From positions 1-64,000 of the IMG/VR virus record IMGVR_UViG_3300032007_000054: DNA of 64,000 nt. One strand, 5' to 3'. Within the stretch, counting starts at the first letter, position 1, and every line of letters begins with the position of its first letter. The notes beneath the pieces are model-generated. The model saw only the letters and a program-made list of their open reading frames with translations, made no database searches and was not told the origin of the DNA. The stretch is from a virus. Taxonomy: Duplodnaviria; Caudoviricetes. A program made the position numbers and the translations under genes. This document shows positions 13,422 to 58,063 of the stretch, piece by piece.

Positions 13422-13799
13422 ATGATTAAGTTCAGACATCAGGGCAATTTTAAAAAATTGACAAATTACTTTGAACAGTTAAAAGAAACCATGAATCTCG
13501 GCATTTTGGATAAGTATGGTCAAAAAGGTGTTGATGCTCTGAAATCTGTTACTCCGGTACGTACAGGATTGACGAGAGATTCATGGTATTACCAGATAGA
13601 ACATAATAAAGGTTCCGTTTCAATCAGATTTTTAAACTCAAACATTCAAAATGGCCAAAACATCGCCATTATTCTTGACATCGGTCACGGAACACGTGGT
13701 GGCGGATGGGTTCGAGGGCTACATTATATTGAGCCTGCCATTCAGCCTATTTTTGAAGAACTTGCGCAAGCTTCTTGGGAGGAGGTTAAAAATCTATGA
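13422..13799 (+). CDS. HK97 gp10-like tail completion protein
   Basis: TPVRTGLT...W...A.ILD.GHGTR.GG.V.G..YI.PA pattern. Confidence 0.7.
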   Translation: MIKFRHQGNFKKLTNYFEQLKETMNLGILDKYGQKGVDALKSVTPVRTGLTRDSWYYQIEHNKGSVSIRFLNSNIQNGQNIAIILDIGHGTRGGGWVRGLHYIEPAIQPIFEELAQASWEEVKNL

Positions 13800-16700
13800 G
13801 CGATGGACTTCTTGATGAACGTGTTGTTGAGATGCGGTTTGATAATGCCGACTTTGAACGAAATGTTAATCAAAGCATCAAGACAATTGATAAATTAAAA
13901 GAATCTCTGGATTTTGAGAATGCCGGAGAAAGTTTTGAAAATATTTCTGCAGCAGCTGCTAAGTGTGACATGAAGCCTCTTGAGGATTCTCTTGAGGGAA
14001 TTACTGTAAAGTTTAATATGCTTGAAATGGTTGCTGCGAACGTACTTGGCAATATTACAAGTAAAATTGTTGATGCCGGTGCAAAGATGGCAAAATCTTT
14101 GACCGTTGATCAGCTGACAGCTGGTTGGGCAAAATATGACCAAAAAACAGCTGCTGTTCAGACAATTATTTCTGCTACCAGTGAAAGCATCGATGTTGTA
14201 AATCAGAAGCTTGAGAAGTTGATCTGGTTTGCTGACGAGACTTCTTATGATTTTGTTGACATGGTCAATAATATTGGTAAGTTTACATCTGCAGGTGTTG
14301 ATCTTGATACCGCTGTCGACTCAATGATGGGTATTTCTAACTGGGCAGCAGCTTCAGGTGCTGGCATTCAGCAGGCAAGTCGGGCAATGTATAATCTTTC
14401 TCAGGCAATCGGCATGGGCTATGTTGGTCTTACAGATTGGCGTTCGATCGAGCTTGCCAATATGGCTACAAAAGAATTTAAAGAGACTGTTATTGAAACC
14501 GCGCTTGAAATGGGAACCTTACAGCAAACAGCAGATGGTACTGTTAAAACTTTAAATGGTAAATTTGAAGTTACTGCTGAAAACATGCGTAATTCATTAA
14601 AGGAGCAATGGTTCTCAACAGATGTTTTAAATTCTGCTTTGAAAAAATATAATGAATTTGCTAATCTTGTTCACGATCGTCAGGAACAATGGGCTGAAGA
14701 ACATGATGGAGCATATCTTACTGTATCCAGAACAATTCAACTCCTTGAATCAGAAGGTGTTGCAATGGATACACTTGGCGCTAAAGCATTTATGCGTGCC
14801 CAGGAAGCAACAAAATTCTCTGAAGCTGTAGCTGCAACGGCAGATGCCGTATCATCCGGTTGGATGAGAACTTTTGAAATTATTTTTGGTAATTACGAAC
14901 AGGCAAAGAAACTTTGGACTGATTTGGCAAATGACATGTATGATGTTTTTGCCAGTGGTGGCGAACGTCGTAATGATATGCTTTCTGATATAATGCAATC
15001 CAATTATCAGAAAATGCTTAATGAAATGCCAGATGGCAATGAAATGAATGATCGTCTTTACGATAAACTTTATGAGATGACTAAGAATAATCTTGGTGTT
15101 GATGCTGCTGATCAGTTATTTTCAGCTTATACCTCTCTTGAAGATTTATTGAAAGATAATGCTGATTATATATATAATTCATCACTTGAAGATGCATTTA
15201 AACAAGTAGCAGTTGATTTTGATAAAGAGGCAGACGCTGCTTTAAAGTTATCAAAGCAACTTAAAGCGGGAACAGTTTCATTAAAACAGACAGTTCTTCG
15301 TCTTGTTGGCGGACAGTTTGGAAATGAAATTGAAACACAGAAAAAAGAAGTAGAAAAACTTGGTTATAACTATGAAATGCTTAGCGAACTTGCTGAAGAA
15401 TATAAAGCAGGTTTAGAAATTCCATGGGATCAATATCAGAGTGATTTTGTCGAATACTTGGATGAACAGTATTCTTCTTATAAAACATTCGTAAAGAAGA
15501 TTACAGAATTATTGCCAGAAGAAGGATTTTTTGGCAGTTTGACAGAATTTGGCGGCCGAGATAAATTAATTGGCGGATTTCAGAATTTAATTGATACTTT
15601 TAAAAATTTGTATTTAACGATTGTTGAAATTGGAAATGGTATCTCAGATTTAACTGGTTCAGGAAGTTTTCTTGAAAAATTGATTAATGGTTTTTCTTTT
15701 TTTACAAATGTACTCAATTATTCAGATGAGGCATTTGAAGGAGTTCAAGAAGGTATTTATAACTTTTTTCATGGTGGTCTTCAGACGAAATGGAATCGTT
15801 TCTGGCATGGCTATGATGTAAAAGATGTATTAGAAAATAATAAAGCAGCTTTTTCTGGTTTTTGGGGCGATATTGAAAAAGCTCATGTTCCAGGGATGCT
15901 CGATCATATTTTTTCTATATATAAAGATCATCTTGCTGTTTTGCCGGCCAATGTATCTAAGACAATCGAGAAAGTTAGAGTTGAGCTATCAACGTTTTTT
16001 GGATCTATTCCTCAAAAAATAAATGAAATAAAAGAAAAAATTTTTGGGAAATTTGAGATACATGAAGTACAAAGTTTATTTTCAAATAATGTTGATACTG
16101 TCATAACTCATACTGGTGGTCTTCTAAATGATTTAAAAGACAAAATTCGTAGTCTTGGTAATGGTCTTGGTGGAAAGATATTTGACGGATTATTGAATAC
16201 CATCAAAAAAGTCGCTGATTTTATGTTTGGTTATCAAAAGGAAGATGGAACTCCGATTGAGGGCGCTTTTGTCAGAATTTATGATAAAGCAACTGCTTTC
16301 TGGGAAAGACTAAAAGATATAGGAAAGAAACTTAATGATATTTTTAGTCCTGTTAAAGATTTTTTCTTTGGCATAAAAGACGCTGAAGGGAAAATTATTA
16401 AAAACAATATTTTTGGCAAATTTGGTACAGCTGTAAGAATATTAGTTGATTCTCCCGCTTATAAATCGATTCATGATTTTCTATTTGGTCGAAAGAATGA
16501 AAAAGGTGAAACCGAGAAAAAGAATATATTTGGCAAAATCGGGACCGCGATCGATTTAATAGCAAAATCATCGGCATATCAGTCCATTCATGACTTTATA
16601 TTTGGTAAAAAAGGCGAGAATGGGTCTGATGATATCCCGAATTTATTTGGAAAGATCAGCGGATTAATTATACAGATAACAGAATCTTCTGCTTATAAAT

Positions 16701-19700
16701 CAATACATGATTTTGTTTTTGGTGGTGGACAGGAAAACGAGCCAAATATATTTTATAAGATCAAATATGCTGTTCGGGATATATTTGATTCTCCTGCTTT
16801 TCAGGCGATTCATGATTTTATATTTGGTAAAAAGACCACCGATTCCGGAATGAAAAACGCTGCTGGCGGTATTTTTTCAACAAAAGAGCAGCTTGAACAA
16901 TTAAATCTTTTTGAACGTATTCGTGCGATTTTATATGATATAAAAACTTTATTATTTGGTTATGATAAAGAAACATTGAGCATGGATACATTAGAAGAAA
17001 CAGTTGTTCATGTTGATGGTAAATTAACTCCGATTATTCAAAAAATAAAAGATATTACTAAAGCTGTAATAAATGCAGTAAATAATTTTCGTAGATGGTT
17101 AGGACTTGATTGGGAAAAGACTGATGATGGTTTTAAAAGAATTCCTGGTGCTATCGATTCTATAAAAGCAAAATATGATGCATTTGTTTCATCTGAGGCT
17201 TTTCAAACAGTTAAACGATTTATTTTTGGAGAAAAAGATTCTGAAGGAAATGCTATACAAAATAATATTTTTGGAAAACTCGGAATTGCTATTGGGACTT
17301 TAAAAGAGCAAGCAAAAAATCTTCCAGATACTTTTCTAACATTTTTCCTCGGTCCTGTTAATGAAGAAGGAAAACGAACTGAAAATTTATTTAAAAGGCT
17401 TCCTGGTTATATTCAGAAAGCTAAAACTGGAATTATGGATTTTTTTCTTGGACAGAAAAAATATGCTGGACGAATATGGAATAATGAGACGGGACAATGG
17501 GAAGATCGTTATATTCGTGAAGGTAATTTAATAGATCGTTTAAAAGAAAAATTTGAACAATTAAAAGCAGATCATCCTTGGTTTGCTTCTTTTTGTTCTT
17601 ATATTGAAACAAAAATTAGAGATATAAAAAAGATATTTGCAGATGCGAATGGATCTGTTACGACTGCTCTTGAAAATTTAAGAAAATATTTATTTGGCTA
17701 TGATGTAGACAAAAAAGGCGGATTATTTAATTTATCAGATCAAACAGAGCATATTCAAGGGCTATTTGGTCGATTAAAAGAAAGTATATCTTCTGTATTT
17801 TCTGGAAATAAAAAAGAAGGCAATAATTTTATTGAAACTATTTTAGATTTTTTCACAAATAAGAAAATAAACAATCTGAATGTAAATATTGGTTCAAAAG
17901 AGTCTCCAATTGTTTCAGCAATAAAAAGTATTATTTTAACAATTGCATCTCTTAAACTTCTCTTATTTGGAAGTAATTTAAGTGGCTTATTAGCATCTTT
18001 AAAGAGACATTTAGATATTTCTGATTTTATTGATACTCTTGGTGAATTTGCAACTTCTATAGCATTGATAGCAGGTACATTAATCGTATTAACTGGATTT
18101 GTAAAGATTCTTAAAGGAAATTACGAATCATTGAAGATTGCAGGTTGGCTAATACTTGGAATAATGGGTGCTTTGGTTTTGTTCGTGAATCTTATTTCTG
18201 ATATTGAAATTGAGAAAAAAGATGGAACGAAATTTGAAAAATCTGTATCCCCTTGGGTTGTAACGTTGATGACAACTTTAGGCATCATTATTGCTGAAAT
18301 AGCAGCAATAATGGCGATTATGATGTTGGTAGTAAAGATCGCTGGACCAGAAGTAGTTCAAGAAGCAGCTAATATTATTACTGGTATTTTTATAGCTCTT
18401 GCCGTACTTGTTGCTGCTATATCATATGTTCCAAAAGATAGTGATGCAAAAAAGATGGCTACTAAATCGACTGCATTGTTTGGAATAGCGGCGATTTTAT
18501 TAGCTATGACTCCTTTATTATTATCAATGGCTGCTGTATTTGTTAGTTTATCAGTATTGCGACATTTTGATACTAATTGGGAAGCAGAATTATGGGTACT
18601 TGGAGGGATGCTTGGATTTATTACTGCATTTATTGTTTTACTTCAAGTATTGCCAAATAAAGGTGTAAATCTTAGTTTACTTGGAGGACTAGCTCTTATC
18701 GCTATAATGATAAAAGAGCTAGGTGCAATAATTACAAGTTTTTCCTTATTAGCAAAACTTTCTGGATCTTATAGTTATATTATTGCTGCAGCTGCTTCTA
18801 TTGGAGGTTTGTTGGTAGTAATAGGCCTTTTAGCTGCTGGCTTATCAGCTATTAAACCTATAAATGGAAGCGTTATTGCAAGCATTGTAGCTATTGCGGT
18901 TGTTATTGCTGCTATTGGAGGCGCGATATCATTAATGATATCTGTTTCTAAAGATTTGGAAAATATGGATCTTTTGTTGTCCATATTGCAAGGAATGACA
19001 ACTCTTTTACTTGGTATTACTGCATCATTAGTAATTCTTTCTGGAATTAAAAAAATAGATTGGAAAGCATTTGGCTATCTAGGAATGATGATAGTTGCTG
19101 TTGGTCTTTTAGGCGGATTGGTTGTTGCTTTATCTTGGCTAGGAAAGCAGGCTGGTCTTGAAAATAGTTATACTGCAATATTGCCAATGTTAGCTGGTAT
19201 TGTTGAAATTGCTGGGACTATGATAATTGTTGCTGCTGCAATATATGCTATGGGTGCAATCGGAAAAGCTATAGCACCCATGGTTGGAGAAGCTATATTA
19301 ATGATTCTTGGTGTTGTTGGTGTAGTTGGTGTATTAGCAGCAATTCCACAGATTATTGATCATTTTGCTGGCGAAGGAACCGTTCTTGAATCTATAGAAT
19401 ATCTTGTTCAGATTATAGAAACTCTCGCTGGAGGTCTTGGTAAAGCAATTGGAGCATTTATTGGTGGTATTGGATCAGGCTTAGTTGATTCATTTACAGG
19501 AGTTGTTGATTCTCTTGTCAAAGTGGCAAATAAAATAAAAGATGAATTTCTTCCTGCTATTAGTGAATTTACTCTTGAAGATGCTGCCCAGGCCGGTATG
19601 ATGGCAACAATAATGCTTGGAGCCTTTACAGCAGAAGCTTTAGGTGCACTTACTGTTCTTATAGATGCATTAGTACCAAATGGTGCAATTGAAAGCACTC

Positions 19701-22700
19701 TTGATAATTTAATAAAAGTTGCTACAAAATTAAGAGATGAATTCTTACCGGCAATAAATGATTTCTCATCAACTCATGCTGCAAAAGCCGGGTTAATGGC
19801 AACAATAATGTTAGGAGCTTTTGCTGCTGAAACATTTGGATCATTTACAGCACTTTTAGATAATATTACTGGTAATGGCGCAATCGAAAAAGCTTTAGAT
19901 GGTCTTATTTCTATAGCTAATAAATTAAAGGCAGACTTTATTCCGGCAGTAAAAGATTTTTCAACAACTGATGTTACCAAAGCTGGTTATTTATCTGGAA
20001 TTATGCTTGGAGCATTTAAAGCAGAAACTTTTGGCACTTTTTCAGAATTGGTGTCCAGAGTTCAAAAAGACGGACAAATTGATAAGGTCATTGATGGGCT
20101 TGTTAATATAGCTGGAAAATTAAATCAGGACTTCTTACCTGCAATCAAAGATCTTAGTTATACTCATGTTTCGAGTGCTGGATATTTATCTAAGATCATG
20201 CTTGAAGTCTTAAAATCTGAAGTGTTTACAGCCGCTTCAAGTTTTGTTGGAATTTTTGTTAAAGGCGGAGATCTGGATAATGTTGTTACAGGTCTTTGTG
20301 AAACCACTGAAAACTTAAAAACAAAATTCTTGCCGGTTGTTAAAGATCTTAGTGAAGACGACGTCAAAAAAGCTGGATTTATTCCGAAAATACTTGGATC
20401 TGTGCTGAGTTCTCAGGTATTTACTGGTTTAAGTAAGCTTACAAGTTGGCTTACCGGAGATACGAATTACGTTGAACTTTTTGGCAAATTAACGCAGCCG
20501 GACGGCGTAATTGACGGTATCGAATCTTTTTCAAATGCATTAAAGGGCAGAAAATTTGAGGGTGTTTCAGAAGCGTCTAACGCAATGGCATCTGTATTTA
20601 GTTTGCTTGAAATGCTTGGTAATTCGGTAAATATCAAAGAAGATACACATTGGTATGATAAACTGAATATTTTTAGTGATTCCGTATCATTGTCTTCTGT
20701 TGTTGGATCATTAAATGGCATTACTGAAAAAATCATTCCTTGCATTGTTTCTTTACAGGATGGTATGCGAAATGCTGGCATAGATGCTGAATATATTAAA
20801 AATACAATTGGCGTTTATGTTGAAATGCTTAGATCTATTAGTGAAATTGGACAGGATAATTTTGTTCTTAATGAGATTGATATTGTACAAATTGGCCAAT
20901 TTGTTGTTGATGGTCTTCTTATTGCTTTACAAGACGAAACCAACATTTCTAATGTAAAACAGGCAGCAATTAATCTTGGTATTCAGATTAAAGACGGTTT
21001 AATGTTTTCATTGGATGAAAATTCACCTTCAAAAGTAGCTTATGAAATCGGCGCTTTTGTTGCAGAGGGTCTTACAAATGGTCTTCGTGCCGGCGAAGGT
21101 ATGACTTATTCTATGGCTCAGCGATTTGGTGAAGGGACTGCTAAAGCTCTTGAAGAAGGTCTTGGTGATTTTGATAGCGTTTCTCAGCATGCAATCAACA
21201 TGGTTACAATGGATTTGCTTGATGAGAATCGGTTTGACATGAAGAGCTTTGTCTCCGGGTTTAATCGCTTTGGTAATGAAGAGCTTGACTTTGAAGCAAT
21301 GCGGAAATTCCTTACCGATAATTTTGGCGAAGTCTTTGATCAAAACATGATTGACGGATTTGTCAACTCTTATGAGCAGACAATGAGTAAGCTTAATGAT
21401 ACGATCAATGATAAAGACTATGCTGAACTTATGACTGGCATTGCTGCTGGCGATTTTGGCCTTAGTGAAAATACGATAATTGATGCACTGACAGAAGAAC
21501 TTGGTGATGTTAAAGCTGCACGGCAAGCCTGGGAAGATTATAATGATGTAAAAGAAGGTAACCTGAAAATTAATCAGGAACTTTTTAAACAGCAGAAGCA
21601 GAATCCGCCAATGACTCTTGAGCAGTATATGGATATGATTGCTCATGAGGAGGAAGGTTATCAGCGTGCACTTAAAGGTGAATTTGATGAGCTTGCTCGT
21701 CTTAATAATACTACTCGTGCACAGGAAATGGAAAAGGCCGGGTTTAATGCCGAATTACTCCAGGGCAGGTTGAATGAAGGCGGCTTATCTCAGGAACAGA
21801 TTGAAGCTTATATCAAAGATAAAGCTCTTAAAGATTATGAGGCAGAACAGACCCGTCTTGTTGACGATATTATTCGAAATAATGAGGCTGTTACTGAATC
21901 AACCACAGAAGTAGCTGAAGCTCTTAATTTTGATATTGATGATCCTCTTGGTGAAAAGCTTGCTATTAAAGATGCTGCTGCTTTGAAAGAAGTGGCTGGA
22001 GCAGCTGAAGAAGTTGCTGAAGCACAGCAGTCAGTTGCTGAAACTGCCGAAGCAAAGGCCGAGGCTGTTGAAGCAGAAACGGCAGCAGTAGAAGCTTCTA
22101 ATAATGCCAATAAAGAAGCGGCTAAAGTAAATCGAGATGGAGCAGTATTCAAATCTTTAGATAAGGTAGAACTTGGTCAAGCACTTGAAGCATTTCGTGA
22201 AGGTAAAAAGCTAACTGAAGAGCAGACAAGAATTATTGAAAATGCTCGTCAAGCAACAATCAGTGAAGGGGCATTTGGTGTAGCAATTGGTGAAAAAGGT
22301 TGGGCTGACCAGATGAAAAAATGGGGCCTTACCGAAACCAATGCTAAATATTTGGCACATTTTGCTAATTTCTATGATCCAACAACACAATCTCTTGAAG
22401 AATATGTGAAGTGGGTCGAAAAGTCTGATGAAGTTACCGAAGATCTTACAAAATCTACTGAAAATGCTGGTGAATCTGCTAAAAAGACCGGAACATCTTT
22501 AGCGAACATTGCTGATGATGGAAAGGCAGTTGTTGATATTTTCAAGCATGCCTTTAGTACTGATGCTTATAATGAAAAAACAGGAAGTTTTTCTATTGAT
22601 TTTGAAAAAGCTTACCAGGACTCAATTGCTGATGCTGAAAAAGCAGGTGATGAAACACGTAAGAAATATCTTGAAGCATTCTATTCTGGTTTGGGAGAAG

Positions 22701-25594
22701 AAGGTTTCAATAAAGTTGGCGATAATGGAAAGATCGAACTAAAAGCCGAAGATGTATTTAAACTTGTTGGAACAGAAGGTGGAATTAAAGGATTCGCTGC
22801 TGCAAAAGGTGGTGAGCTTCTTGGCAACTTAATTGGCGATAATATTCCATTCTTAGGAGATATATTCGGCAATACAAAAGAATTTGATTTTACACAGATC
22901 TTTAGCGGCACAGATAGCACGATGAGTTTCTTCAAGGGTCTTGTTGCTTCGGTTACAGGTCTTAATAAAGAACTTGATGAAACTAGTGATAAAAAAGTAG
23001 ATATTGATGTTAATGATTCTAAAGTAGAATCTGCTATTTCCATGGTAGATGAACTAAATAAGAAATATACTCTTGGTGATGACGAAAAGAAATTAGCAGC
23101 ACAAGGCATTAAAGATCTTCAAAATGGTGTAAAAGTTACAGAGAAAAGTGCCGATGCGATCCAGAAACTCTGGAATGGTGCCATGATTGGTATGTATAAA
23201 TCTGGAGAAGAACGCATCACAGCTATTAAGCAGCTCCTTAATCTTGATAATTTTGATTGGGAAACACTTAGCAGCCTTTTGGATGAAAACGGTCATTTTG
23301 ATATTACAAAACAAACGAGCTCAGCTCTTGATCAGGCTAATAAAGTCATTCAGATGGCAACAAATGGTGAGGCATATTCTACTGCAGATCTTATGAATGA
23401 CATTTATGCTGGTAAGTGGGGATATGATACCGATCGATTGAAAGCTTTAGAGAAAGCCGGATATGATGCCCAAAAAGTTCAGGAGAATTTCTTAAAGTGG
23501 TATAACGGAGATAAAACTATTGAAAATCTTGGTGATGATTATTTTAAAGTCTCCGAATCCGAAAAAGAAGCTGCTGAACAAGCCGAAAAGATGAATGCTG
23601 TCCTGAATCAGACTCCGGAAGGTGCATTCCGATCTGTTGCTGATTTCCTAGATGGTGTAAATAAAGCAGTAGAAAATGAAGGAACTGCTAGTGCATTTAA
23701 GAAGTTGATGACCGACATTGCTGACTCTATGAAGTCTCTGTCACTTTCAGATGCTTCAAATTTTGAGAAAGTTTCCGGTTTCTTAACTGCTGTCAGGACT
23801 TCTGCGAAAGAATCTTCCGTTATTGCTCAGGACTTCAAAGCTTTTGTTGATGGAATTAAAGATTCTATCATAAAGCTTGGTGATATCGACATCAAGAATC
23901 CGGAAGGTATGGAGAAGGTCAAAGACTTTCTCAATAACATCAAGATTGAAAACAAAGATACTCTTGAAGCTGTTTCTTCTTTTATTGGTAATATTGTAGA
24001 ATTTGCTACCGGTGCGAATGCAGGTGGAAATTATTCGACAAAGCTTACTGAGTCTATTGATGCTTTGATGACATCCATTAATGGTATTGAACTAAATAAA
24101 GAAGCTATAACCCCGGTTGTTAAATTCTTGCATGAACTGACAAATTCTGCTGGCATTCTTGAAAAGTCTGACAGTGGTGTTGTACAGACATTTATTTCCA
24201 ACATTTATACTGCACTTGAGAACAGTTCAGATAAAGCCGCACAAGCAGCTGATGTAATTGCGCAGGTTATTGTTGATACACTTGCTGGTTATTATTCGCA
24301 GCTCAATACAATAGGCCACAACTTTGTATGGTGGCTTGCAAGGGGTATTCTCAAATCAAAGAATTTGGCGCAGTCTGCCGGTGAAAGTATTGCTGGCGCT
24401 TTAATGAATTCATTAAAGGATTATGCTGTTTCTAAATCTCAAAAGTCTGGTATGGATTTTGTTTCAAATTTTGTTGCCGGTATAAATACACCCGGATCAC
24501 AGAAATTACTTCAGGATACGATTGATAATTTATTCAATCCAAAAGTAGAACCTAAATCTGCGGAAGAAACTTTCAAAGAAGGATCTAACCCACTTAAAGA
24601 TAAATTGTATGAAGAGCTAAAGGGTGATGAAGAATCGGCCGGAACAACCAGAGATACAAGTGCATCTGCTGGTACAAAGTTTGGTCAGCAGTTTGTTCAG
24701 GATATGTCCGCTGCTATTGAACAGGGGACTGGAACTGTTGGAGAAACATTAACCACTCTTGGTGCTACATTATCGACAACAGTAAGTATTGATACTGAAG
24801 GTATTTCTGATAAAGCATCAGAATATTTTAAAAATCTTGCTTCTGGTTTATTAGCAGGTTATGAAGCTAATTCTAAAGATTTAAATGAAGTTTCTGGTAA
24901 AGTACGGCGTGTTTTTACAAGAATGGTCCCTGATGGTTACAGTATGGGATATAACTTTATGATAAATCTTAGAAAAGGGATGCAAGATGGTGCTGCTGCA
25001 GCCGGTTTTGGTGGTGTTGGTAATTATGTGGCGCAAGGAACAGCGGATGGCATTGTTGAGGGAACAAAATCCGTTGTTGAAGCTACTAATAATCTAACAG
25101 AAAAGACTAATGAAGCTGCTCAATTAGGATTTGGTGAAGCTTCGCCTTCAAAAATCTTTTATGGCTTTGGTAGATATCTTGATGAAGGTCTTGCTAACGG
25201 TATTAGGGATTATACAAATCTTGCTGCAAATCAATCTGATGGAATGGCTGAAGTAGTAACAGGAGTATTTTCTGATGCTATTTCCGCAATTGCTGATGAT
25301 CTTGATACAAATATGAATCTCGATCCTGTTATTCGTCCTGTCATTGACATGTCAGATGTTTACGATTCTGCAAATACTATTGACGCCATGCTTAGTTCTG
25401 ACAAAGCTATTGATATTTCTGCTGCTGAAAATGCAAAAACTCTACAATCAACTGATGATATGTCAGAAGTAACACCTGGAACTCAGGTATTTAATCAATA
25501 TAATTATTCACCTAAAGCTTTGTCACGTCTTGATATTTATCGTCAGACAAAGAATCAATTCGCAATGATAAAAGGAGTTAATCAATTAGTATGA
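13796..25594 (+). CDS. Tape measure protein (3932 aa)
   Basis: Very long helical ORF before Dit; N-terminal tape-measure domain, hydrophobic core, internal repeats, SPSK motifs. Confidence 0.92.
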   Translation: MSDGLLDERVVEMRFDNADFERNVNQSIKTIDKLKESLDFENAGESFENISAAAAKCDMKPLEDSLEGITVKFNMLEMVAANVLGNITSKIVDAGAKMAKSLTVDQLTAGWAKYDQKTAAVQTIISATSESIDVVNQKLEKLIWFADETSYDFVDMVNNIGKFTSAGVDLDTAVDSMMGISNWAAASGAGIQQASRAMYNLSQAIGMGYVGLTDWRSIELANMATKEFKETVIETALEMGTLQQTADGTVKTLNGKFEVTAENMRNSLKEQWFSTDVLNSALKKYNEFANLVHDRQEQWAEEHDGAYLTVSRTIQLLESEGVAMDTLGAKAFMRAQEATKFSEAVAATADAVSSGWMRTFEIIFGNYEQAKKLWTDLANDMYDVFASGGERRNDMLSDIMQSNYQKMLNEMPDGNEMNDRLYDKLYEMTKNNLGVDAADQLFSAYTSLEDLLKDNADYIYNSSLEDAFKQVAVDFDKEADAALKLSKQLKAGTVSLKQTVLRLVGGQFGNEIETQKKEVEKLGYNYEMLSELAEEYKAGLEIPWDQYQSDFVEYLDEQYSSYKTFVKKITELLPEEGFFGSLTEFGGRDKLIGGFQNLIDTFKNLYLTIVEIGNGISDLTGSGSFLEKLINGFSFFTNVLNYSDEAFEGVQEGIYNFFHGGLQTKWNRFWHGYDVKDVLENNKAAFSGFWGDIEKAHVPGMLDHIFSIYKDHLAVLPANVSKTIEKVRVELSTFFGSIPQKINEIKEKIFGKFEIHEVQSLFSNNVDTVITHTGGLLNDLKDKIRSLGNGLGGKIFDGLLNTIKKVADFMFGYQKEDGTPIEGAFVRIYDKATAFWERLKDIGKKLNDIFSPVKDFFFGIKDAEGKIIKNNIFGKFGTAVRILVDSPAYKSIHDFLFGRKNEKGETEKKNIFGKIGTAIDLIAKSSAYQSIHDFIFGKKGENGSDDIPNLFGKISGLIIQITESSAYKSIHDFVFGGGQENEPNIFYKIKYAVRDIFDSPAFQAIHDFIFGKKTTDSGMKNAAGGIFSTKEQLEQLNLFERIRAILYDIKTLLFGYDKETLSMDTLEETVVHVDGKLTPIIQKIKDITKAVINAVNNFRRWLGLDWEKTDDGFKRIPGAIDSIKAKYDAFVSSEAFQTVKRFIFGEKDSEGNAIQNNIFGKLGIAIGTLKEQAKNLPDTFLTFFLGPVNEEGKRTENLFKRLPGYIQKAKTGIMDFFLGQKKYAGRIWNNETGQWEDRYIREGNLIDRLKEKFEQLKADHPWFASFCSYIETKIRDIKKIFADANGSVTTALENLRKYLFGYDVDKKGGLFNLSDQTEHIQGLFGRLKESISSVFSGNKKEGNNFIETILDFFTNKKINNLNVNIGSKESPIVSAIKSIILTIASLKLLLFGSNLSGLLASLKRHLDISDFIDTLGEFATSIALIAGTLIVLTGFVKILKGNYESLKIAGWLILGIMGALVLFVNLISDIEIEKKDGTKFEKSVSPWVVTLMTTLGIIIAEIAAIMAIMMLVVKIAGPEVVQEAANIITGIFIALAVLVAAISYVPKDSDAKKMATKSTALFGIAAILLAMTPLLLSMAAVFVSLSVLRHFDTNWEAELWVLGGMLGFITAFIVLLQVLPNKGVNLSLLGGLALIAIMIKELGAIITSFSLLAKLSGSYSYIIAAAASIGGLLVVIGLLAAGLSAIKPINGSVIASIVAIAVVIAAIGGAISLMISVSKDLENMDLLLSILQGMTTLLLGITASLVILSGIKKIDWKAFGYLGMMIVAVGLLGGLVVALSWLGKQAGLENSYTAILPMLAGIVEIAGTMIIVAAAIYAMGAIGKAIAPMVGEAILMILGVVGVVGVLAAIPQIIDHFAGEGTVLESIEYLVQIIETLAGGLGKAIGAFIGGIGSGLVDSFTGVVDSLVKVANKIKDEFLPAISEFTLEDAAQAGMMATIMLGAFTAEALGALTVLIDALVPNGAIESTLDNLIKVATKLRDEFLPAINDFSSTHAAKAGLMATIMLGAFAAETFGSFTALLDNITGNGAIEKALDGLISIANKLKADFIPAVKDFSTTDVTKAGYLSGIMLGAFKAETFGTFSELVSRVQKDGQIDKVIDGLVNIAGKLNQDFLPAIKDLSYTHVSSAGYLSKIMLEVLKSEVFTAASSFVGIFVKGGDLDNVVTGLCETTENLKTKFLPVVKDLSEDDVKKAGFIPKILGSVLSSQVFTGLSKLTSWLTGDTNYVELFGKLTQPDGVIDGIESFSNALKGRKFEGVSEASNAMASVFSLLEMLGNSVNIKEDTHWYDKLNIFSDSVSLSSVVGSLNGITEKIIPCIVSLQDGMRNAGIDAEYIKNTIGVYVEMLRSISEIGQDNFVLNEIDIVQIGQFVVDGLLIALQDETNISNVKQAAINLGIQIKDGLMFSLDENSPSKVAYEIGAFVAEGLTNGLRAGEGMTYSMAQRFGEGTAKALEEGLGDFDSVSQHAINMVTMDLLDENRFDMKSFVSGFNRFGNEELDFEAMRKFLTDNFGEVFDQNMIDGFVNSYEQTMSKLNDTINDKDYAELMTGIAAGDFGLSENTIIDALTEELGDVKAARQAWEDYNDVKEGNLKINQELFKQQKQNPPMTLEQYMDMIAHEEEGYQRALKGEFDELARLNNTTRAQEMEKAGFNAELLQGRLNEGGLSQEQIEAYIKDKALKDYEAEQTRLVDDIIRNNEAVTESTTEVAEALNFDIDDPLGEKLAIKDAAALKEVAGAAEEVAEAQQSVAETAEAKAEAVEAETAAVEASNNANKEAAKVNRDGAVFKSLDKVELGQALEAFREGKKLTEEQTRIIENARQATISEGAFGVAIGEKGWADQMKKWGLTETNAKYLAHFANFYDPTTQSLEEYVKWVEKSDEVTEDLTKSTENAGESAKKTGTSLANIADDGKAVVDIFKHAFSTDAYNEKTGSFSIDFEKAYQDSIADAEKAGDETRKKYLEAFYSGLGEEGFNKVGDNGKIELKAEDVFKLVGTEGGIKGFAAAKGGELLGNLIGDNIPFLGDIFGNTKEFDFTQIFSGTDSTMSFFKGLVASVTGLNKELDETSDKKVDIDVNDSKVESAISMVDELNKKYTLGDDEKKLAAQGIKDLQNGVKVTEKSADAIQKLWNGAMIGMYKSGEERITAIKQLLNLDNFDWETLSSLLDENGHFDITKQTSSALDQANKVIQMATNGEAYSTADLMNDIYAGKWGYDTDRLKALEKAGYDAQKVQENFLKWYNGDKTIENLGDDYFKVSESEKEAAEQAEKMNAVLNQTPEGAFRSVADFLDGVNKAVENEGTASAFKKLMTDIADSMKSLSLSDASNFEKVSGFLTAVRTSAKESSVIAQDFKAFVDGIKDSIIKLGDIDIKNPEGMEKVKDFLNNIKIENKDTLEAVSSFIGNIVEFATGANAGGNYSTKLTESIDALMTSINGIELNKEAITPVVKFLHELTNSAGILEKSDSGVVQTFISNIYTALENSSDKAAQAADVIAQVIVDTLAGYYSQLNTIGHNFVWWLARGILKSKNLAQSAGESIAGALMNSLKDYAVSKSQKSGMDFVSNFVAGINTPGSQKLLQDTIDNLFNPKVEPKSAEETFKEGSNPLKDKLYEELKGDEESAGTTRDTSASAGTKFGQQFVQDMSAAIEQGTGTVGETLTTLGATLSTTVSIDTEGISDKASEYFKNLASGLLAGYEANSKDLNEVSGKVRRVFTRMVPDGYSMGYNFMINLRKGMQDGAAAAGFGGVGNYVAQGTADGIVEGTKSVVEATNNLTEKTNEAAQLGFGEASPSKIFYGFGRYLDEGLANGIRDYTNLAANQSDGMAEVVTGVFSDAISAIADDLDTNMNLDPVIRPVIDMSDVYDSANTIDAMLSSDKAIDISAAENAKTLQSTDDMSEVTPGTQVFNQYNYSPKALSRLDIYRQTKNQFAMIKGVNQLV

Positions 25595-43146: not shown

Positions 43147-43252
43147 TGATATTTTCTCTCCTTGTAGGAGTTAATTATAATCCTACATTTTGCATCTCCT
43201 ATAGTGAGAGGACAAGGATGATCCTCTTGTGTTTTTAGAAAAGGAGTGAAAA

Positions 43253-43432
43253 ATGGAATATTTTGATGTATTGTATTATGTTGTTGATAGGAAAACAAAC
43301 AATTTGCTATTTAACGGGCATGGAAACCCGTTTTACAGTGATGTACTGGAAGCTATGCTGATTATGCAGAAAGCTCATCCGGAAATGGATTTGGAAATTA
43401 TTGAAGGGTCTTATACCCTTTTTGATAATTAA
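43253..43432 (+). CDS. Small hypothetical protein (59 aa), cassette 1
   Basis: MEYFDVLYYVVDRK...; AAGGAG RBS, stop abuts terminator; not in the provided ORF track. Confidence 0.7.
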   Translation: MEYFDVLYYVVDRKTNNLLFNGHGNPFYSDVLEAMLIMQKAHPEMDLEIIEGSYTLFDN

Positions 43433-49243: not shown

Positions 49244-50281
49244 ATGGAGAAAAAGATGAATAAAGTTGAAATGCATAAGAAGATTTGTGAAGAATTAAAC
49301 GACTTGTACGAACGCAAAAACGCCGATTACGGCGAAAGCTTTGCCGAACTCCGAAAGGAGTATCCGGAATCGATCTGTATCCGCCTTACAGATAAACTAA
49401 ACCGACTGAAAAAACTCACTTCTGCTGATCATGAACAGAATGTCAAGGATGAATCAGTTGAAGATACGCTGAAGGATATTGCAAATTATGCGATCATGGA
49501 ATTAGTGGAACGGAAAGGTACTGAAGATGAATCAATACTAAATGATAATATTATGTTGTTCTATGATGAAGTAACTCAACATTATTTTCAGGCAAATCAA
49601 AAACAGATTAATGCTGCGTTAACAAGTCTGTCCAAGATGATGGAAACTAATGGATATGTAACAATATCTGATTATTTGAGGCATATTGGTTTAGGCGAAT
49701 TTGACGATGATGATACATATAATCAATTAGGTTGGAATGAGAAATGGCCGGCATGCTTCGGATTTTCTACATCAGAAGGGTGTTTATGTGGAGAACCTGT
49801 AGTAAAAATAAAAGTAACGTACCCTTATACATTGGTTAATAAGTGGCAAAAATCCGTTGAACATTATGGCATTACAGGTCAAAAATGGGGTAAACGACAA
49901 AAAGAATATAAGTCAATTCTTATAGCTTTTTATAATTATGATATGAACAAACATATTCAAAATCTTCAGCTTGTGTATAACAATACCATAGAAGAACAAT
50001 ACGAATACCATAGTTATGACATTTCCGGACAATCTTGGAAAGATCAGGTATTTGAAATGGCGAAGTATATCTACACATTTCTGGATGGCGTGTATTCAGA
50101 CGACCATGGCGGATCAATGTTTGTTCCGGATATGCTTGGAAGGAATGCTCTTTGGATAGCTTTGGACGTTATAGATCATGAGAATCATGAAATCGAGTAT
50201 AACATGGCAGATCCTGAAGAATACGATCGGATCACTGAGTTTTATAAGATTTATAAGAAAGGAAGCAGGAATGAAAGATAG
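49244..50281 (+). CDS. Chimeric protein: DUF1599-like N-terminus, DUF6353-like middle, HYGxxGxKWG motif
   Basis: LYERKNADYGESF...RL.DKLNRL...DTL.DIANYAIM; FYDEVT..YF...GYVTISD...LGWN; VEHYGITGQKWGKR. Confidence 0.6.
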   Translation: MEKKMNKVEMHKKICEELNDLYERKNADYGESFAELRKEYPESICIRLTDKLNRLKKLTSADHEQNVKDESVEDTLKDIANYAIMELVERKGTEDESILNDNIMLFYDEVTQHYFQANQKQINAALTSLSKMMETNGYVTISDYLRHIGLGEFDDDDTYNQLGWNEKWPACFGFSTSEGCLCGEPVVKIKVTYPYTLVNKWQKSVEHYGITGQKWGKRQKEYKSILIAFYNYDMNKHIQNLQLVYNNTIEEQYEYHSYDISGQSWKDQVFEMAKYIYTFLDGVYSDDHGGSMFVPDMLGRNALWIALDVIDHENHEIEYNMADPEEYDRITEFYKIYKKGSRNER

Positions 50282-51247: not shown

Positions 51248-51471
51248 GCGGTATTGGGTTTATTGAAGTGCATAGAGTTTTTGATAATAAAGAAATACTT
51301 ATCAATGTCGCATATATTACTGATGTTCTAAGCGAGATACCCTTTGCTCATGATAATATAAATGCGACTCTTATTGAGACCCTGGATAATCAAGTTTGGA
51401 GAGTTATTGAAACTTATGATGAAATCAAGGAATTGATTAGTCAAAGCAATAGGATCTTCAAAATGGAGTAA
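51244..51471 (+). CDS. Small hypothetical protein
   Basis: Overlapping start/stop with neighbour; FIEVH...ILINV..I..V pattern. Confidence 0.6.
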   Translation: MSGIGFIEVHRVFDNKEILINVAYITDVLSEIPFAHDNINATLIETLDNQVWRVIETYDEIKELISQSNRIFKME

Positions 51472-51546
51472 TCGCTAAATTTTCATTTCCTAAAATGGAG
51501 AGGCAAGGATGGCCTCTTTTTGTTTTTAAATTAGAAAGGAGTGAAA

Positions 51547-52014
51547 ATGGGAAAACCGAAGTTGAAAAATATGTCATTAGAAGAACTGGAAGAGCAGTTT
51601 GAAGATTTTGATGAAGAAATCGTCCAGGATGTTGAATTATGGGACGAAAAATATGTTGATAGCAGTGATATGCTGCTGAAGGAAATAAATGATCTTTCGA
51701 ATGGTGAAGAAAGATCAAGAGCGATTAAGGATTTGCAGATAATGGAGCAGATCACAAACGAACGGATCAAAGTTCGTAATGAAAATCGTAAAATGAAGCA
51801 AGAGCTGATCCTGAAAGAGGAAGAGCTCAAAAATCAGAAGAAAGCTAATCGATGGGGCATTTTAGCTCAAATCGGAGGAACGATTTTATCGTTCGTAGGC
51901 TATTCGATTCTGTTGCAGAGGCAGAATGAATTCGAAAGCGGAGACAGTTACTCGACAAATGGAAGTCGAGGATTGACTCAGAATATCTCTCACTTTGTTG
52001 GGAGAGGTAAATAG
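51547..52014 (+). CDS. Coiled-coil protein with C-terminal TM, in own promoter-terminator cassette
   Basis: Promoter 51472, hairpin, TTAGAAAGGAGT RBS; terminator AAGGCTATGA/TCATAGCCTT at 52023-52048. Confidence 0.7.
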   Translation: MGKPKLKNMSLEELEEQFEDFDEEIVQDVELWDEKYVDSSDMLLKEINDLSNGEERSRAIKDLQIMEQITNERIKVRNENRKMKQELILKEEELKNQKKANRWGILAQIGGTILSFVGYSILLQRQNEFESGDSYSTNGSRGLTQNISHFVGRGK

Positions 52015-52060
52015 TTGTAATCAAGGCTATGACTTTGTTCATAGCCTTTTATTTTTTATT

Positions 52061-52420
52061 ATGCGATATCACTATGAGGAACCGGAAGGTCTGGCAAAAC
52101 GCTATGGGCAGATCTATCGCTGTGATCACCCGATATATACCTGGTGCACATTATTTATAGTCGGAGAACGAGGACTGGCCGTGATCCGACAGTACTTTGA
52201 TTCTGAGAAAAAAGTGACTTATTGGAGAGAACTTGATCGAAATCTGACAGCAGATATTTATCTGAATGATGGGTTCGAAGAGTACTTTCAAAAACATGCA
52301 AAGCCTTGTAAGGACGGACTGTATCCTACAGTTACGGTCCGTCAGATCATGTGGGCACTGCGGATGAAGCCGCTGCCGAAAAAACGTTGGGAGACTGTCT
52401 TTGACAGAAAGGAGATCTAA
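52061..52420 (+). CDS. Conserved phage protein
   Basis: MRYHYEEP...CDHPIY..CTLF...RGLAVI. Confidence 0.65.
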   Translation: MRYHYEEPEGLAKRYGQIYRCDHPIYTWCTLFIVGERGLAVIRQYFDSEKKVTYWRELDRNLTADIYLNDGFEEYFQKHAKPCKDGLYPTVTVRQIMWALRMKPLPKKRWETVFDRKEI

Positions 52421-52638
52421 TGCCGAATGTAATCACGGAATGTGAAATCAAGCGTTCAACTATTGACCCGGCTGTTATGCTGATCAATGTCAAATATGAT
52501 AATGATTCAAAATGGAATCTGCTGCGTACATATTTTCCGAATGAACTGAGTTTTCATCCAGATGAGTTTGTCGGCCTGACAGATACAGATGCATTGAATT
52601 TCTGTTGGGAGCGGGATCTTGAGTTTCTCAGGAGTTAA
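52420..52638 (+). CDS. Small hypothetical protein
   Basis: AAGGAG RBS; coupled start/stop. Confidence 0.6.
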   Translation: MPNVITECEIKRSTIDPAVMLINVKYDNDSKWNLLRTYFPNELSFHPDEFVGLTDTDALNFCWERDLEFLRS

Positions 52639-52640
52639 GA

Positions 52641-53063
52641 ATGAAAGTATATGTATTACTGAATACTGATGATGAAATTGTAAACATTTTTGACAGTGTA
52701 GAAGCAGCGGATGAAACGATCAGTACCGATGCCTTTTTTGATGGATGGTACAAAGTAATTGATGTATATGGAGATATATATTACAAGAATGAGTGTTTGG
52801 GGCTCATGACCCTTAAGCCTTATGAACTTATAAATTTATCAGCAAAATCTGCAGATCAGAATCCAATGTCATGGGATGAACTTATGGTCTGGAAAGGAAA
52901 TCCGGTATGGATCGAAACCCCGAATAAGAAATACTGGACAATCGTTCTTAATTCCGGAAAGCTGGCTGATGGTTCAAAAATGTTTATGGATCATGAAGAG
53001 TTTTATCATGAAAAAGACAGGGGAAAAACCTGGGAGGCTTATAAGCAGAGAAGGAGTATATGA
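52641..53063 (+). CDS. Hypothetical protein
   Basis: AGGAG RBS; MKVYVL...IFDSVEAA. Confidence 0.65.
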   Translation: MKVYVLLNTDDEIVNIFDSVEAADETISTDAFFDGWYKVIDVYGDIYYKNECLGLMTLKPYELINLSAKSADQNPMSWDELMVWKGNPVWIETPNKKYWTIVLNSGKLADGSKMFMDHEEFYHEKDRGKTWEAYKQRRSI

Positions 53064-53383
53064 TGCACTTAAAACCAGAAGATACAATTATTGTGACCAG
53101 ACATCCGGGTATTGTGGAATGGCTGGAAAAACATTACAGTATTACCGGAACTGTAAAGCAGTCCGTAACAATCGAAGACATTAAAGGTAAACATATCATC
53201 GGGGAAGTCCCTGCTTATGGTGCACAGTATGCTTTTTGTGTTTCTGCAATCATCTGGCCGCATCCATGGAAAGAATATGGTACCGGAACACTAACCTATG
53301 AAGATGTAGTTGCAATGGAACCGGAGCTGTTCACTTATGTGGTCGTTCCGGTCGTTGACACAGATCCTACAGACTACTACTAA
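53060..53383 (+). CDS. Csx16 (Cas_VVA1548)-like protein, candidate ring nuclease
   Basis: IVTRHPGIVEWL...IEDIKGKHIIGEVP...GTLTYEDV.A...L.TY.V matches my recollection of the Csx16 family pattern. Confidence 0.65.
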   Translation: MMHLKPEDTIIVTRHPGIVEWLEKHYSITGTVKQSVTIEDIKGKHIIGEVPAYGAQYAFCVSAIIWPHPWKEYGTGTLTYEDVVAMEPELFTYVVVPVVDTDPTDYY

Positions 53384-53458
53384 AAATCGCAAAATTTTCA
53401 CCTCCTATAATGGAAGGACATAGAGGTCCTTTTGTGTTTTTTATTAAAAAGGAGGAAA

Positions 53459-53569
53459 ATGTTAGGTATAGTAGCATTGTTAGTGTTCGCCTATGTATGG
53501 GGCGATTTACGTGTTGCGCTGTTTATAGCGATTGGCTTCGCATTAGCGAAAGCCTTATTGAAGAAATAA
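53459..53569 (+). CDS. 36-aa hydrophobic peptide in own cassette
   Basis: Promoter 53387, AGGAGG RBS, MLGIVALLVFAYVWGDLRVALFIAIGFALAKALLKK, terminator 53578-53603. Confidence 0.65.
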   Translation: MLGIVALLVFAYVWGDLRVALFIAIGFALAKALLKK

Positions 53570-54002: not shown

Positions 54003-54812
54003 ATGAATATTGCTAGAGCAGGAAAGTTCGCTTTACAGTTTATAAGGCGAAACTCTCCGATCATTCTAAGCGTCGCTGCCGGAATCGGATTGGCAGCGCT
54101 TTATATTTTAACGATTAAAGAAACAGAAGAAGTTGTCCATGAAATCGAAGAAGCGCCGGAAGAGGAGGTCCATAGCTTCAAAATGGTGAAAAAAACTGTC
54201 AAAATCATGGCACCTTCTTTTGTTGTTTTACTGCTGACGATGTTCTGCATTGTACAGTCCTGCAGGATCTCGCAGCATCGAATACGGGACCTTACTCAGT
54301 ATTCAGCCATGCTGGCAGCAACTTTGAATCAGTATCGGCAGAAAAACCGGGAGATCATCGGACCGGATGGTTCTGAAAATAATGACAAATTTATAATGTA
54401 TGAAATCGCGTCTGAGAATATGCCGGATGAACTGCCTGATGATCCGGAAGATGGAATTCTGTGTGAATTAATTGGGTATCCGCATTATTTTAAAGTTCCA
54501 AAACTTGAAAATATATATGCCGGATTTTTAAATGCAAATGAATATATGGAAACCGGCTGGGGATCTGTAGAGTTATCCAAGTTATTCAGATGGATCAATG
54601 CAATCCACTATGATGAAAAAGGTCATCGCTGTGGTATGGATGTTAATTATCTGCATTACGGATGGGAAACACACGATCTGTCAGATTGCGAGAAAGTAAG
54701 CGGATTATATCCATATATTGGCCGTATAACAGAGGACAGCGGTTTAGTTGTATATCTGATCGACGTCCCGGCTCCAAAACCGCTGGACGTAAGTTGGGAA
54801 TATGGGATCTAA
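54003..54812 (+). CDS. DUF6353-like membrane-anchored protein
   Basis: SPIILSVAAGIG TM start; paralog of 55175 and 57137. Confidence 0.65.
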   Translation: MNIARAGKFALQFIRRNSPIILSVAAGIGLAALYILTIKETEEVVHEIEEAPEEEVHSFKMVKKTVKIMAPSFVVLLLTMFCIVQSCRISQHRIRDLTQYSAMLAATLNQYRQKNREIIGPDGSENNDKFIMYEIASENMPDELPDDPEDGILCELIGYPHYFKVPKLENIYAGFLNANEYMETGWGSVELSKLFRWINAIHYDEKGHRCGMDVNYLHYGWETHDLSDCEKVSGLYPYIGRITEDSGLVVYLIDVPAPKPLDVSWEYGI

Positions 54813-55174: not shown

Positions 55175-55960
55175 ATGGGAATTAATTTTATGAAGGATGC
55201 TGTGAAGGGCCTGTGTACCTTTGCCAAGGTAAATGCAGGTCCGATCTCGACAGTAGCGGTGATCCTTGGTATGGTCACCGCTTTTTCTTTAGCTGCCAAA
55301 GCAGGAAAGGAAGCGGCTGAAGATATTGAGGAAGCGAAGGAAGAGCTGGAGGTTGAGGAATTAACACTCGGCGAAAAAGTAAAGTTTACCTGGAAGCGGT
55401 TTTTACCGGCAGTGTTTGTGCTGCTGCTGACCATTACAAGCTTCGTATATACGACCCGGCAGATGGCAAAGCGATATGCTGCACTGTCGGCAGCTTATAG
55501 TTTGACTGAAAGTTATCTGAAAGATTACATGGATGCAACAAAAGAAGCTGCCGGTCAAAAGAAAGAGCAAACGATTCGTGATGCTGCAAATGTAAAACAG
55601 GCAAAAAAGTATCCGATCGAACGTGGTGTTATTGAAACCGGGTACGGTGATGATCTGTTTTTTGATGAAGTGATCACAACTAGATATTTCAGATCAACAC
55701 TGGATCACGTACAAGCAGCAGAAAAAGAGCTTGCCAGTATTTATCAGGCTGAAGATTCGATTACCATGGATGATTACACATTCCGGATGGGACTTGGTAC
55801 ACGATCAAATAACGGAAATAATCTTGGTTGGAAAAAATCAGGAAAGCTTGATGAAACAAATAAGTTCTTCCTGTATTATACAGCAGCGATCAGTGACAGC
55901 GGAGAACCGTATATCATTATCAGTCAGGGCCCAAACCGTATGACTGATCTTATGCGGTAG
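55175..55960 (+). CDS. DUF6353-like membrane-anchored protein
   Basis: TM start; ETGYGDDLFFD...RYFRS...LGW. Confidence 0.65.
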   Translation: MGINFMKDAVKGLCTFAKVNAGPISTVAVILGMVTAFSLAAKAGKEAAEDIEEAKEELEVEELTLGEKVKFTWKRFLPAVFVLLLTITSFVYTTRQMAKRYAALSAAYSLTESYLKDYMDATKEAAGQKKEQTIRDAANVKQAKKYPIERGVIETGYGDDLFFDEVITTRYFRSTLDHVQAAEKELASIYQAEDSITMDDYTFRMGLGTRSNNGNNLGWKKSGKLDETNKFFLYYTAAISDSGEPYIIISQGPNRMTDLMR

Positions 55961-57136: not shown

Positions 57137-58063
57137 ATGAATGCAAAACTGGCAATGGAAAAAGCAGGGTTTGTCTTAAGACAGGCAAGCCCTGAGATTT
57201 TAATTGGTGTCGGTATTCTTTCCGGAATTGCTGCGATCTTTACAGCATGTTCCAAAATGAAGAAAGCCGAAGAAGTTACAGAAGAATTCCATGAAGAAAT
57301 GGAAGTTATTGCAGAGGAAGAAGAAAAAGGTACAAAAGAATATGCAGCAGCATCTTTTAAAGCCGGAACGAGATTGTTCGGACGTTATCTGAAGACATTC
57401 TGGCTGCCGATCCTGCTGGAGATCTTATCAATTATCGCTATTTGGTACAGTCACGGGATCATGGTAAAAAGGAATGCGGACCTGGTATCCGCCGCAATTG
57501 TTCTGACGCAGCAGCTTGATAAATATCGGGATCGGGTCCGGGAAAAGGTCGGTGATGAAATCGAGAATGATCTTTTCTATGGTGTCACCAATAAAAAAGT
57601 TGGTGAGACGATCGTTAAAGATGAAAAAGGAAAAGATAAGAAAGTGAAAGTCGTCGAAAAGATTATTGAAAACGGAGCTGAAGGGCCATTTGACCGGGTG
57701 TTTGATAAAAATAATCATAGTTTTCAAGGTCAGCCCGGTGCGGATATGGGATTCCTCAGAGCTGTTCGGACAAGTGCTGAAGATATTATGCGAGGCCGTG
57801 CAACAAAAAGCAGCAATGGCTGGATCACGATTAATGAAGTACTTACTCAACTTGGGTTTGAACCGGTAGAGAACGGATTTAATTGGGGTTGGGTGTATAG
57901 TCGTTTTGATCCGAAGTATCAATCGACTTATGTTGATTTCGGTGTGAATGATTATTCCAACATGGTTGTTCGTAATTTTGAAAATGGTCTGGAACCGGTG
58001 ATGCCTCTGCACTTCAACTGCAAACCATTTGAATTTAGTGAATTGAAGCTTGCGAAGATCTAA
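57137..58063 (+). CDS. DUF6353-like membrane-anchored protein
   Basis: SPEILIGVGI TM start; G.ITINEV...LG...GWVY...VDFG...LHFN. Confidence 0.7.
   Translation: MNAKLAMEKAGFVLRQASPEILIGVGILSGIAAIFTACSKMKKAEEVTEEFHEEMEVIAEEEEKGTKEYAAASFKAGTRLFGRYLKTFWLPILLEILSIIAIWYSHGIMVKRNADLVSAAIVLTQQLDKYRDRVREKVGDEIENDLFYGVTNKKVGETIVKDEKGKDKKVKVVEKIIENGAEGPFDRVFDKNNHSFQGQPGADMGFLRAVRTSAEDIMRGRATKSSNGWITINEVLTQLGFEPVENGFNWGWVYSRFDPKYQSTYVDFGVNDYSNMVVRNFENGLEPVMPLHFNCKPFEFSELKLAKI

Follow-up and report, generated by a model that had tools for sequence, protein, structure and literature searches.

The window, by which we mean the whole 64,000-nucleotide stretch analysed here, comprises the first 64 kb of virus record IMGVR_UViG_3300032007_000054 (Duplodnaviria; Caudoviricetes). 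Within it, a Csx16-like gene stands last of five small ORFs (51541-53383) that have copies of a repeated element on both sides. The features at the locus, all on the plus strand, are given below.

51470..51540, plus strand: repeated element at the head of the cassette, delimited by alignment of copies; hairpin at 51497-51519
51541-52014, plus strand: ORF of 157 aa, first of the cassette; no known function
51995-52420, plus strand: ORF of 141 aa (phrog_17256), second of the cassette; no known function
52420-52638, plus strand: ORF of 72 aa, third of the cassette; no known function
52641-53063, plus strand: ORF of 140 aa in a variable slot, fourth of the cassette; no known function
53051..53056, plus strand: putative ribosome-binding site AAGGAG, 6 nt before the ATG at 53063; read from the sequence
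53063..53383, plus strand: Csx16/Cas_VVA1548-like coding sequence, 106 aa from the likely start; assigned from homology, residues and an AlphaFold2 model
53385..53458, plus strand: next copy of the repeated element, directly after the Csx16-like stop; closes the cassette
53459-53569, plus strand: ORF of a hydrophobic 36-aa peptide (MLGIVALLVF...), headed by the second element copy

The earlier note on this DNA had placed the gene at 53060-53383, and an intact plus-strand ORF of 107 codons, opening with ATG at 53060, indeed lies there. What needs amendment is the start, which is probably the second ATG at 53063, given the position of the AAGGAG motif and the fact that residue 2 is the first residue both in P0002, a relative of 96% identity, and in the ESM Atlas record. 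The stop codon of the upstream ORF (TGA, 53061-53063) overlaps this second ATG, an arrangement that suggests translational coupling. The repeated element, ~70 nt long, is laid out as AATCGC..AAATTTTCA..CCTAWAATGG, followed by a GC hairpin with a T-run and then by AAAGGAG-N-ATG. It looks like a promoter plus leader; a promoter combined with a terminator-like leader hairpin is an odd pairing. A third copy is found at ~43185-43260, and the copies sit at cassette boundaries.

In full, the virus record is 90,166 bp long and is rated complete by CheckV. The genome has a G+C content of 39%; its genes include those of the large terminase, the portal and the head protease as well as that of a tyrosine integrase. 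Among cultured phages, it shows similarity at the DNA level solely to Faecalibacterium phage FP_oengus, over a short stretch. The structural module includes one ORF of 3,932 codons (13796-25594, plus strand), unusually long for a phage gene. Genes between 64 and 90 kb specify an anaerobic ribonucleotide reductase (NRDD, E 2e-95), a dUTPase, a protein that binds ssDNA and one whose domain resembles the RNA polymerase alpha-CTD. Comparison of the 116 ORFs of at least 70 aa from the full 90-kb genome with Pfam and PADLOC gave Csx16 as the sole cas family, and the full 90,166-bp record yielded no interspaced repeats arranged like a CRISPR array. In the window, tandem repeats number just four, all of them short, and tRNAs are absent. 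With neither other cas genes nor an array in the record, a phage-borne CRISPR system is ruled out and the Csx16-like gene lies outside any such system; the claim of the earlier note that no other cas gene or array is present thus extends from the window to the entire phage. The gene is not adjacent to a type III CRISPR-cas locus, as is expected of an anti-CRISPR copy.

Assignment of the protein to the Csx16 (Cas_VVA1548) family was initially a proposal from short motifs, and it has stood up well. All motifs quoted in the earlier note are present in the query (T13-R14-H15-P-G17-I-V-E-W21-L22; I-I-G48-E-V-P51; G-T-L-T79-Y-E-D-V) and they coincide with the family's conserved positions across 125 more distant homologues. 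The Pfam comparison proposed there as a check gave a match to PF09652 over profile positions 2-88 of 91 (E 7.6e-5), which at 23.3 bits is below the cut-off of 25. TIGR02620 matched the N-terminal half only (E 0.022), with 15 bits against a cut-off of 46.35, four PADLOC Csx16 models matched with E values from 1.9e-6 to 4e-3, and no PHROG match was obtained for the protein. Single-sequence HMMs therefore bring the query only nearly into the family, and it is the deeper searches that settle membership. A phmmer search of 1.84 billion representatives returned 122 proteins at E < 1e-3; PF09652 is matched by 33 of the 34 sequences in the resulting alignment (A1), with a best E value of 1.7e-21. A profile of the query's own clade (A7, eight sequences) aligned by hhalign to a profile (A6) built from 23 more canonical members over 101 columns, with a probability of 99.87% and an E value of 1.6e-31. 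The query also aligns end to end with Csx16-annotated proteins and with recorded phage copies. An orthologue in the equivalent slot of a related phage (P0012) clearly passes the PADLOC Csx16 model (3e-13). An ESM Atlas feature search gave 30 matches, every one a PF09652 cluster; in the best three, viruses make up 83-100% of the members whose taxon is known, a proportion to be taken as a lead only. By these sequence comparisons, the protein is supported as a divergent Csx16 family member.

Several matches were rejected on the way. A single-protein sequence search of the PDB gave only a chance TIM-2 match, and the family profile retrieved from the PDB only DARPins and ankyrin repeats, each stretch of which is insignificant alone. 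The Csx16 motif DVxGKxVxGxLPLHLAAxA (equivalent to protein residues 38-62; profile A1) resembles the ankyrin consensus DVNAxDxxGxTPLHLAA, and because of this likeness the Csx16 profile collects DARPins and other repeat proteins with whole-sequence E values down to 2e-7. The top match of the representative search (P0009; 5,653 aa, 44 matching stretches) is a Thr/Ala-rich repeat adhesin and was likewise discarded as a repeat artefact.

Conservation was measured across 125 homologues outside the query's clade, and the family positions stand out as R14 (115/122), H15 (115/122), G48 (121/123), P51 (123/123) and T/S79 (103/118). The query keeps T13, R14, H15, L22, V32, G43, K44 and G48, as well as P51, A55, A58, G74, T79, Y93 and V95. 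It carries the family's (T/S)-R-H after strand 1 as T13-R14-H15, whose polar residues are proposed to serve in the ring-nuclease chemistry, and the G-x-L-P after strand 3, preceded by G-K, as G43-K44 and G48-E-V-P51. In the parts of the family's literature accessible to us, no Csx16 catalytic residue mapped by mutation was found. The query departs from the family at the R-G of the loop before the last helix-strand unit, a presumed lid: arginine is found in 104 of 120 homologues, and the query has Y73-G74. It departs also at L54 (112 of 123), where it has glycine. R73 is absent from all eight members of the clade, which have K or R two residues earlier instead. Residues invariant within the clade are K44, H45, G48, E49, P51, A58-F-C-V61 and the C-terminal tail, a set from which R14-H15 is missing. 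Some of them (H45, E49, F59-C60), together with the N-terminal LKPEDTII, lack conservation across the family. The acidic tail, E-x-E-L-x-T-Y-x-V-V-P...T-D-x-T-D, invariant in the clade, is specific to it as well; in the query this tail includes PVVDTDPTDYY, and K44 is followed by H45. The T-R-H motif is intact in the query, in its close relatives P0002-P0005 and in the more distant P0010, P0011 and L097, the last of which has both T-R-H and R-G. Four members of the lineage have lost His15, with N-D (P0006), T-D (P0007), N-N (P0008) and R-R (P0012) at the two positions, and three of the four are also without Arg14.

AlphaFold2, run with the 34-sequence alignment, predicts five strands alternating with helices (pLDDT 88.9, pTM 0.80). 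The model is a five-stranded beta-sheet flanked by helices, of a derived Rossmann/CARF-like fold and weakly DUF1874-like, and it agrees with the description of the published Csx16 and Csx20 models (PMC12409355). The nearest folds to the predicted monomer are Crn2/AcrIII-1, retrieved in the full VIA scan only; Foldseek searches of the PDB and BFVD yielded no match with an E value under 0.1. No DUF1874 match was obtained in Pfam at E values up to 1, and neither the single sequence nor the profile matched 2j6b, 2j6c, 6scf or 8y7g in the PDB. The earlier note had considered the protein to come from a different family than AcrIII-1. That holds at the Pfam level; a distant relationship between Csx16 and DUF1874 has been proposed (PMC8284326), and the fold search agrees with it. 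Two homologues, P0013 and P0015, are natural tandem fusions with two stretches each, consistent with a dimeric unit that would share a cyclic oligoadenylate (cOA) pocket.

The gene is a fixed constituent of a phage lineage. Five other contigs (L003, L089, L084/85, L086-88, L097), two of them ~90 kb long, have in common the order of 157-aa ORF, phrog_17256 ORF, 72-aa ORF, variable slot and Csx16-like gene, continued by the 36-aa peptide, a 121-aa ORF, three DUF6353 paralogues and a DUF5906 primase. The Csx16-like gene hence occupies a fixed slot in the early, integrase-proximal region of at least six related phages. The proteins encoded there range from 83% down to 37% identity, and the more distant ones are the more canonical. 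The clade alignment matched three loci in IMG/VR, where a search with the single protein found nothing. The slot preceding the gene varies: in L089 it holds an ORF of 76 aa with 46% identity to the N-terminal half of the one found here, L084 and L097 have an ORF of 98 aa unrelated to it, and L003 has no ORF there. The 36-aa hydrophobic peptide is conserved in related phages, with 83% identity in L003 and 58% in L084. DUF6353 (phrog_2152) is represented by four paralogues within one early region (49244-50281, 54003-54812, 55175-55960 and 57137-58063); the first is fused to DUF1599, and the three located 3' of the Csx16-like gene are kept in every related contig.

Comparison with the 83%-identical orthologue gave a dN of 0.107, with 54.5 of 70.3 synonymous sites differing, which amounts to saturation; the gene is under strong purifying selection and clearly maintained. 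The same applies to proteins of the lineage that lack the presumed catalytic dyad, as evidenced by P0006 and P0007, both without R-H (dS 0.64, dN 0.056, omega 0.088). It follows that R-H may not be what selection maintains in the clade.

The ~90-kb phage lineage is probably from the rumen, the sample labels of relatives (WILK20, XIEF21) pointing to the ruminant gut. Among GTDB species genomes, neither a copy of the gene nor a relative of the phage primase was found; the one match to the gene, of 18 residues in a Methanoregula MAG, is due to chance. The terminase is ~80% identical to prophage copies in many gut Clostridia. It was rejected as a host marker and taken for a mosaic module, as 32 of the genomes that carry it have no Csx16-like gene.

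The statement of the earlier note that Csx16 proteins degrade cyclic oligoadenylate is correct, and the activity can be specified. Csx16 is a cA4-specific ring nuclease that fully degrades cA4 and leaves cA3 and cA6 uncleaved (Hoikkala et al. 2025, PMC12409355), and the escape from CBASS that the earlier note had envisaged for assay is unsupported for this reason. The biochemistry covers a single cellular Csx16 (PMC12409355). That report counts Csx16 in 68 type III loci and, among 28,114 phage genomes, in 2; a ring-nuclease role had been predicted in 2020, as cited in PMC8284326. With the family so defined (PF09652/TIGR02620), the query shares full-length homology, a length of ~100 aa, the T-R-H and G-x-(L/V)-P motifs, a predicted five-stranded alpha/beta core and the weak structural link to DUF1874 published for Csx16. 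It differs in being encoded by a phage without cas genes, in falling below the curated HMM cut-offs, in the exchange of the lid arginine for tyrosine and of L54 for glycine, and in its clade-specific acidic C-terminal tail.

Among phages, a tblastn survey of 50,697 records matched ORF3 of Methanobacterium virus Drs3, annotated Cas_VVA1548 since 2018, and gp42 of Bacillus phage Shbh1, annotated 'CRISPR related domain'. Both are stand-alone or fused Csx16 domains from phage genomes without cas genes; they align with the query over the whole domain, including R-H and G-x-L-P, and are presumed to be anti-CRISPRs. They differ from the query in sequence (22-25% identity), in a more canonical lid (R-G in Drs3), and in host and phage type, the one being an archaeal virus and the other a Herelleviridae phage. 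Since two phage genomes feature in PMC12409355 and the Drs3 annotation dates from 2018, phage Csx16 as a candidate anti-CRISPR is an idea already known, to which the query adds a new divergent member. CS5676_0038 of the cultured [Clostridium] scindens phage phiCs5676-1 (L102:2737-3765), a hypothetical protein of 342 aa whose gene adjoins the integrase, also includes a stretch with weak likeness to Csx16 (E 7e-3; 60 residues at 37% identity); from its sequence, it may be a fused Csx16 form. Several close homologues occur on other mobile elements without cas genes, for example a phage contig (P0017), a DUF4942/DUF6876 island (P0021) and a Deinococcus plasmid region. Plasmid pDEIPR02 of Deinococcus proteolyticus encodes a protein annotated 'CRISPR-associated protein Csx16' (L100:8992-9276) away from cas genes, in the neighbourhood of small hypothetical genes, two ssb genes, a RES-family NAD+ phosphorylase and a lytic transglycosylase; the locus looks like an anti-defence leading region of a conjugative plasmid.

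Two further systems define the range of functions to be considered. AcrIII-1/Crn2 (DUF1874) has the nearest fold to the predicted model and differs from the query in that no sequence match is detectable between them. Csx15, a member of the CARF superfamily, binds cA4 tightly, cleaves it very slowly and, when over-expressed, neutralises type III immunity in vivo (PMC13148439). It offers a precedent for a small protein that blunts cA4 signalling mostly by binding, of relevance for the relatives of the query without R-H. It differs in belonging to another family, in not being found in phages and in oligomerising head-to-tail around cA4 (PMC13148439).

Based on the collective evidence, the gene is a credible candidate anti-CRISPR, and on balance we lean towards a dimeric, cA4-binding ring nuclease, expressed from an early cassette, that would destroy the Cas10 signal before cA4-dependent effectors can fire. 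By analogy to Csx16 and Crn2/AcrIII-1, the ~12-kDa protein would form a homodimer in which the five-stranded alpha/beta cores build a shared cA4 pocket, lined by the loops after beta1 (T13-R14-H15) and beta3 (G48-x-V-P51). The loop of residues 66-78 would close over the ligand, and the protein would cleave cA4, independently of metal, to linear di-adenylates. Present from early in infection, it would clear the cA4 synthesised by a host Cas10 sensing phage RNA; effectors dependent on cA4 (Csx1/Csm6, Can1/2, Cam1, CalpL and others) would stay off, and type III CRISPR immunity would be countered. The analysis directly supports homology, fold class, the keeping of most family-conserved residues, a phage setting free of cas genes, the shared gene order and purifying selection; dimer formation, cA4 binding, cleavage and the anti-CRISPR role in vivo we infer. 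Weighing against this reading are the HMM scores below cut-off, the presence of Y73 and G54, and the fact that relatives without R-H are under selection.

In an alternative that we rate as unlikely, the clade has retained the ligand pocket of Csx16 and represents a non-catalytic or very slow cA4-binding protein, which like Csx15 would act chiefly by soaking up the signal as a sponge. The absence of the lid arginine R73 throughout the clade, strong purifying selection on sisters without R14-H15 (the omega of P0006 versus P0007) and a clade-invariant set of residues that excludes R14-H15 are all in its favour, as is the Csx15 precedent of tight binding, slow cleavage and neutralisation on over-expression (PMC13148439). 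The intact T-R-H of the query and of P0002-P0005, P0010, P0011 and L097 argues against it, and the K/R at position 71, two residues before the missing arginine, could substitute in the lid. Besides, sequestration has been argued to cope poorly with cOA in the large quantities that type III systems produce, and phages were not found to encode Csx15 itself (PMC13148439). A related scenario, to which we likewise assign a low probability, would have the Csx16 scaffold turning within this lineage from an enzyme into a sponge, or put to some other use involving the K44-H45/E49 surface and the tail. The notion of such a turn arises because the lid arginine is lost in the clade and R-H is lost in sisters evolving at an omega of 0.09.

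It is also conceivable, if rather improbable, that the same fold does another job without a role in type III immunity, binding or cleaving a different nucleotide signal (cA3, cA6, a CBASS product or c-di-AMP) or engaging a host or phage protein through the acidic tail. The clade-invariant LKPEDTII, H45, E49 and tail, all absent from the family's conservation, would fit such a change, as would the diverged lid loop. Residence outside CRISPR loci of many PF09652 members (the D. proteolyticus plasmid; P0021) could be read likewise, but mobile-element copies in such places are just what an anti-defence role predicts. The pocket-lining residues of the family are kept, no finding points to another ligand or partner, and the sole Csx16 tested is strictly specific for cA4 (PMC12409355). 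Finally, the gene might be the remnant of a cas accessory gene that was captured and is now decaying or without function, or the HMM match might be due to chance; the HMM scores below curated thresholds could speak for this. Selection (dN/dS far below 1 with synonymous sites saturated) and the profile comparison (hhalign E 1.6e-31) effectively refute it, the frame being intact with its ribosome-binding site, the orthologues fixed in position in six diverged phages and the fold confidently predicted.

Lastly, the candidate cA4-directed ring nuclease has a bearing on how phages escape type III immunity. Viral ring nucleases are the main known route by which phages blind cyclic-oligoadenylate signalling. 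To our knowledge, experiments or structures back this role for AcrIII-1 alone, joined more recently by AcrIII-2 and Crn4b, and we know of no assay of Csx16 as a viral anti-CRISPR. The present case adds a well-defined, syntenically conserved clade of Csx16 in large uncultured phages, probably of the rumen. Taken together with the mostly viral PF09652 clusters of the ESM Atlas, the clade suggests that phages have captured Csx16 far more often than one would gather from the two cultured examples. The natural variants with and without R-H, both under purifying selection, constitute a ready pair for asking whether it is catalysis or binding that the phage needs. If the turn from enzyme to sponge were true, phages would possess cA4 sponges derived from a ring nuclease, a strategy that has been deemed unlikely against type III CRISPR.
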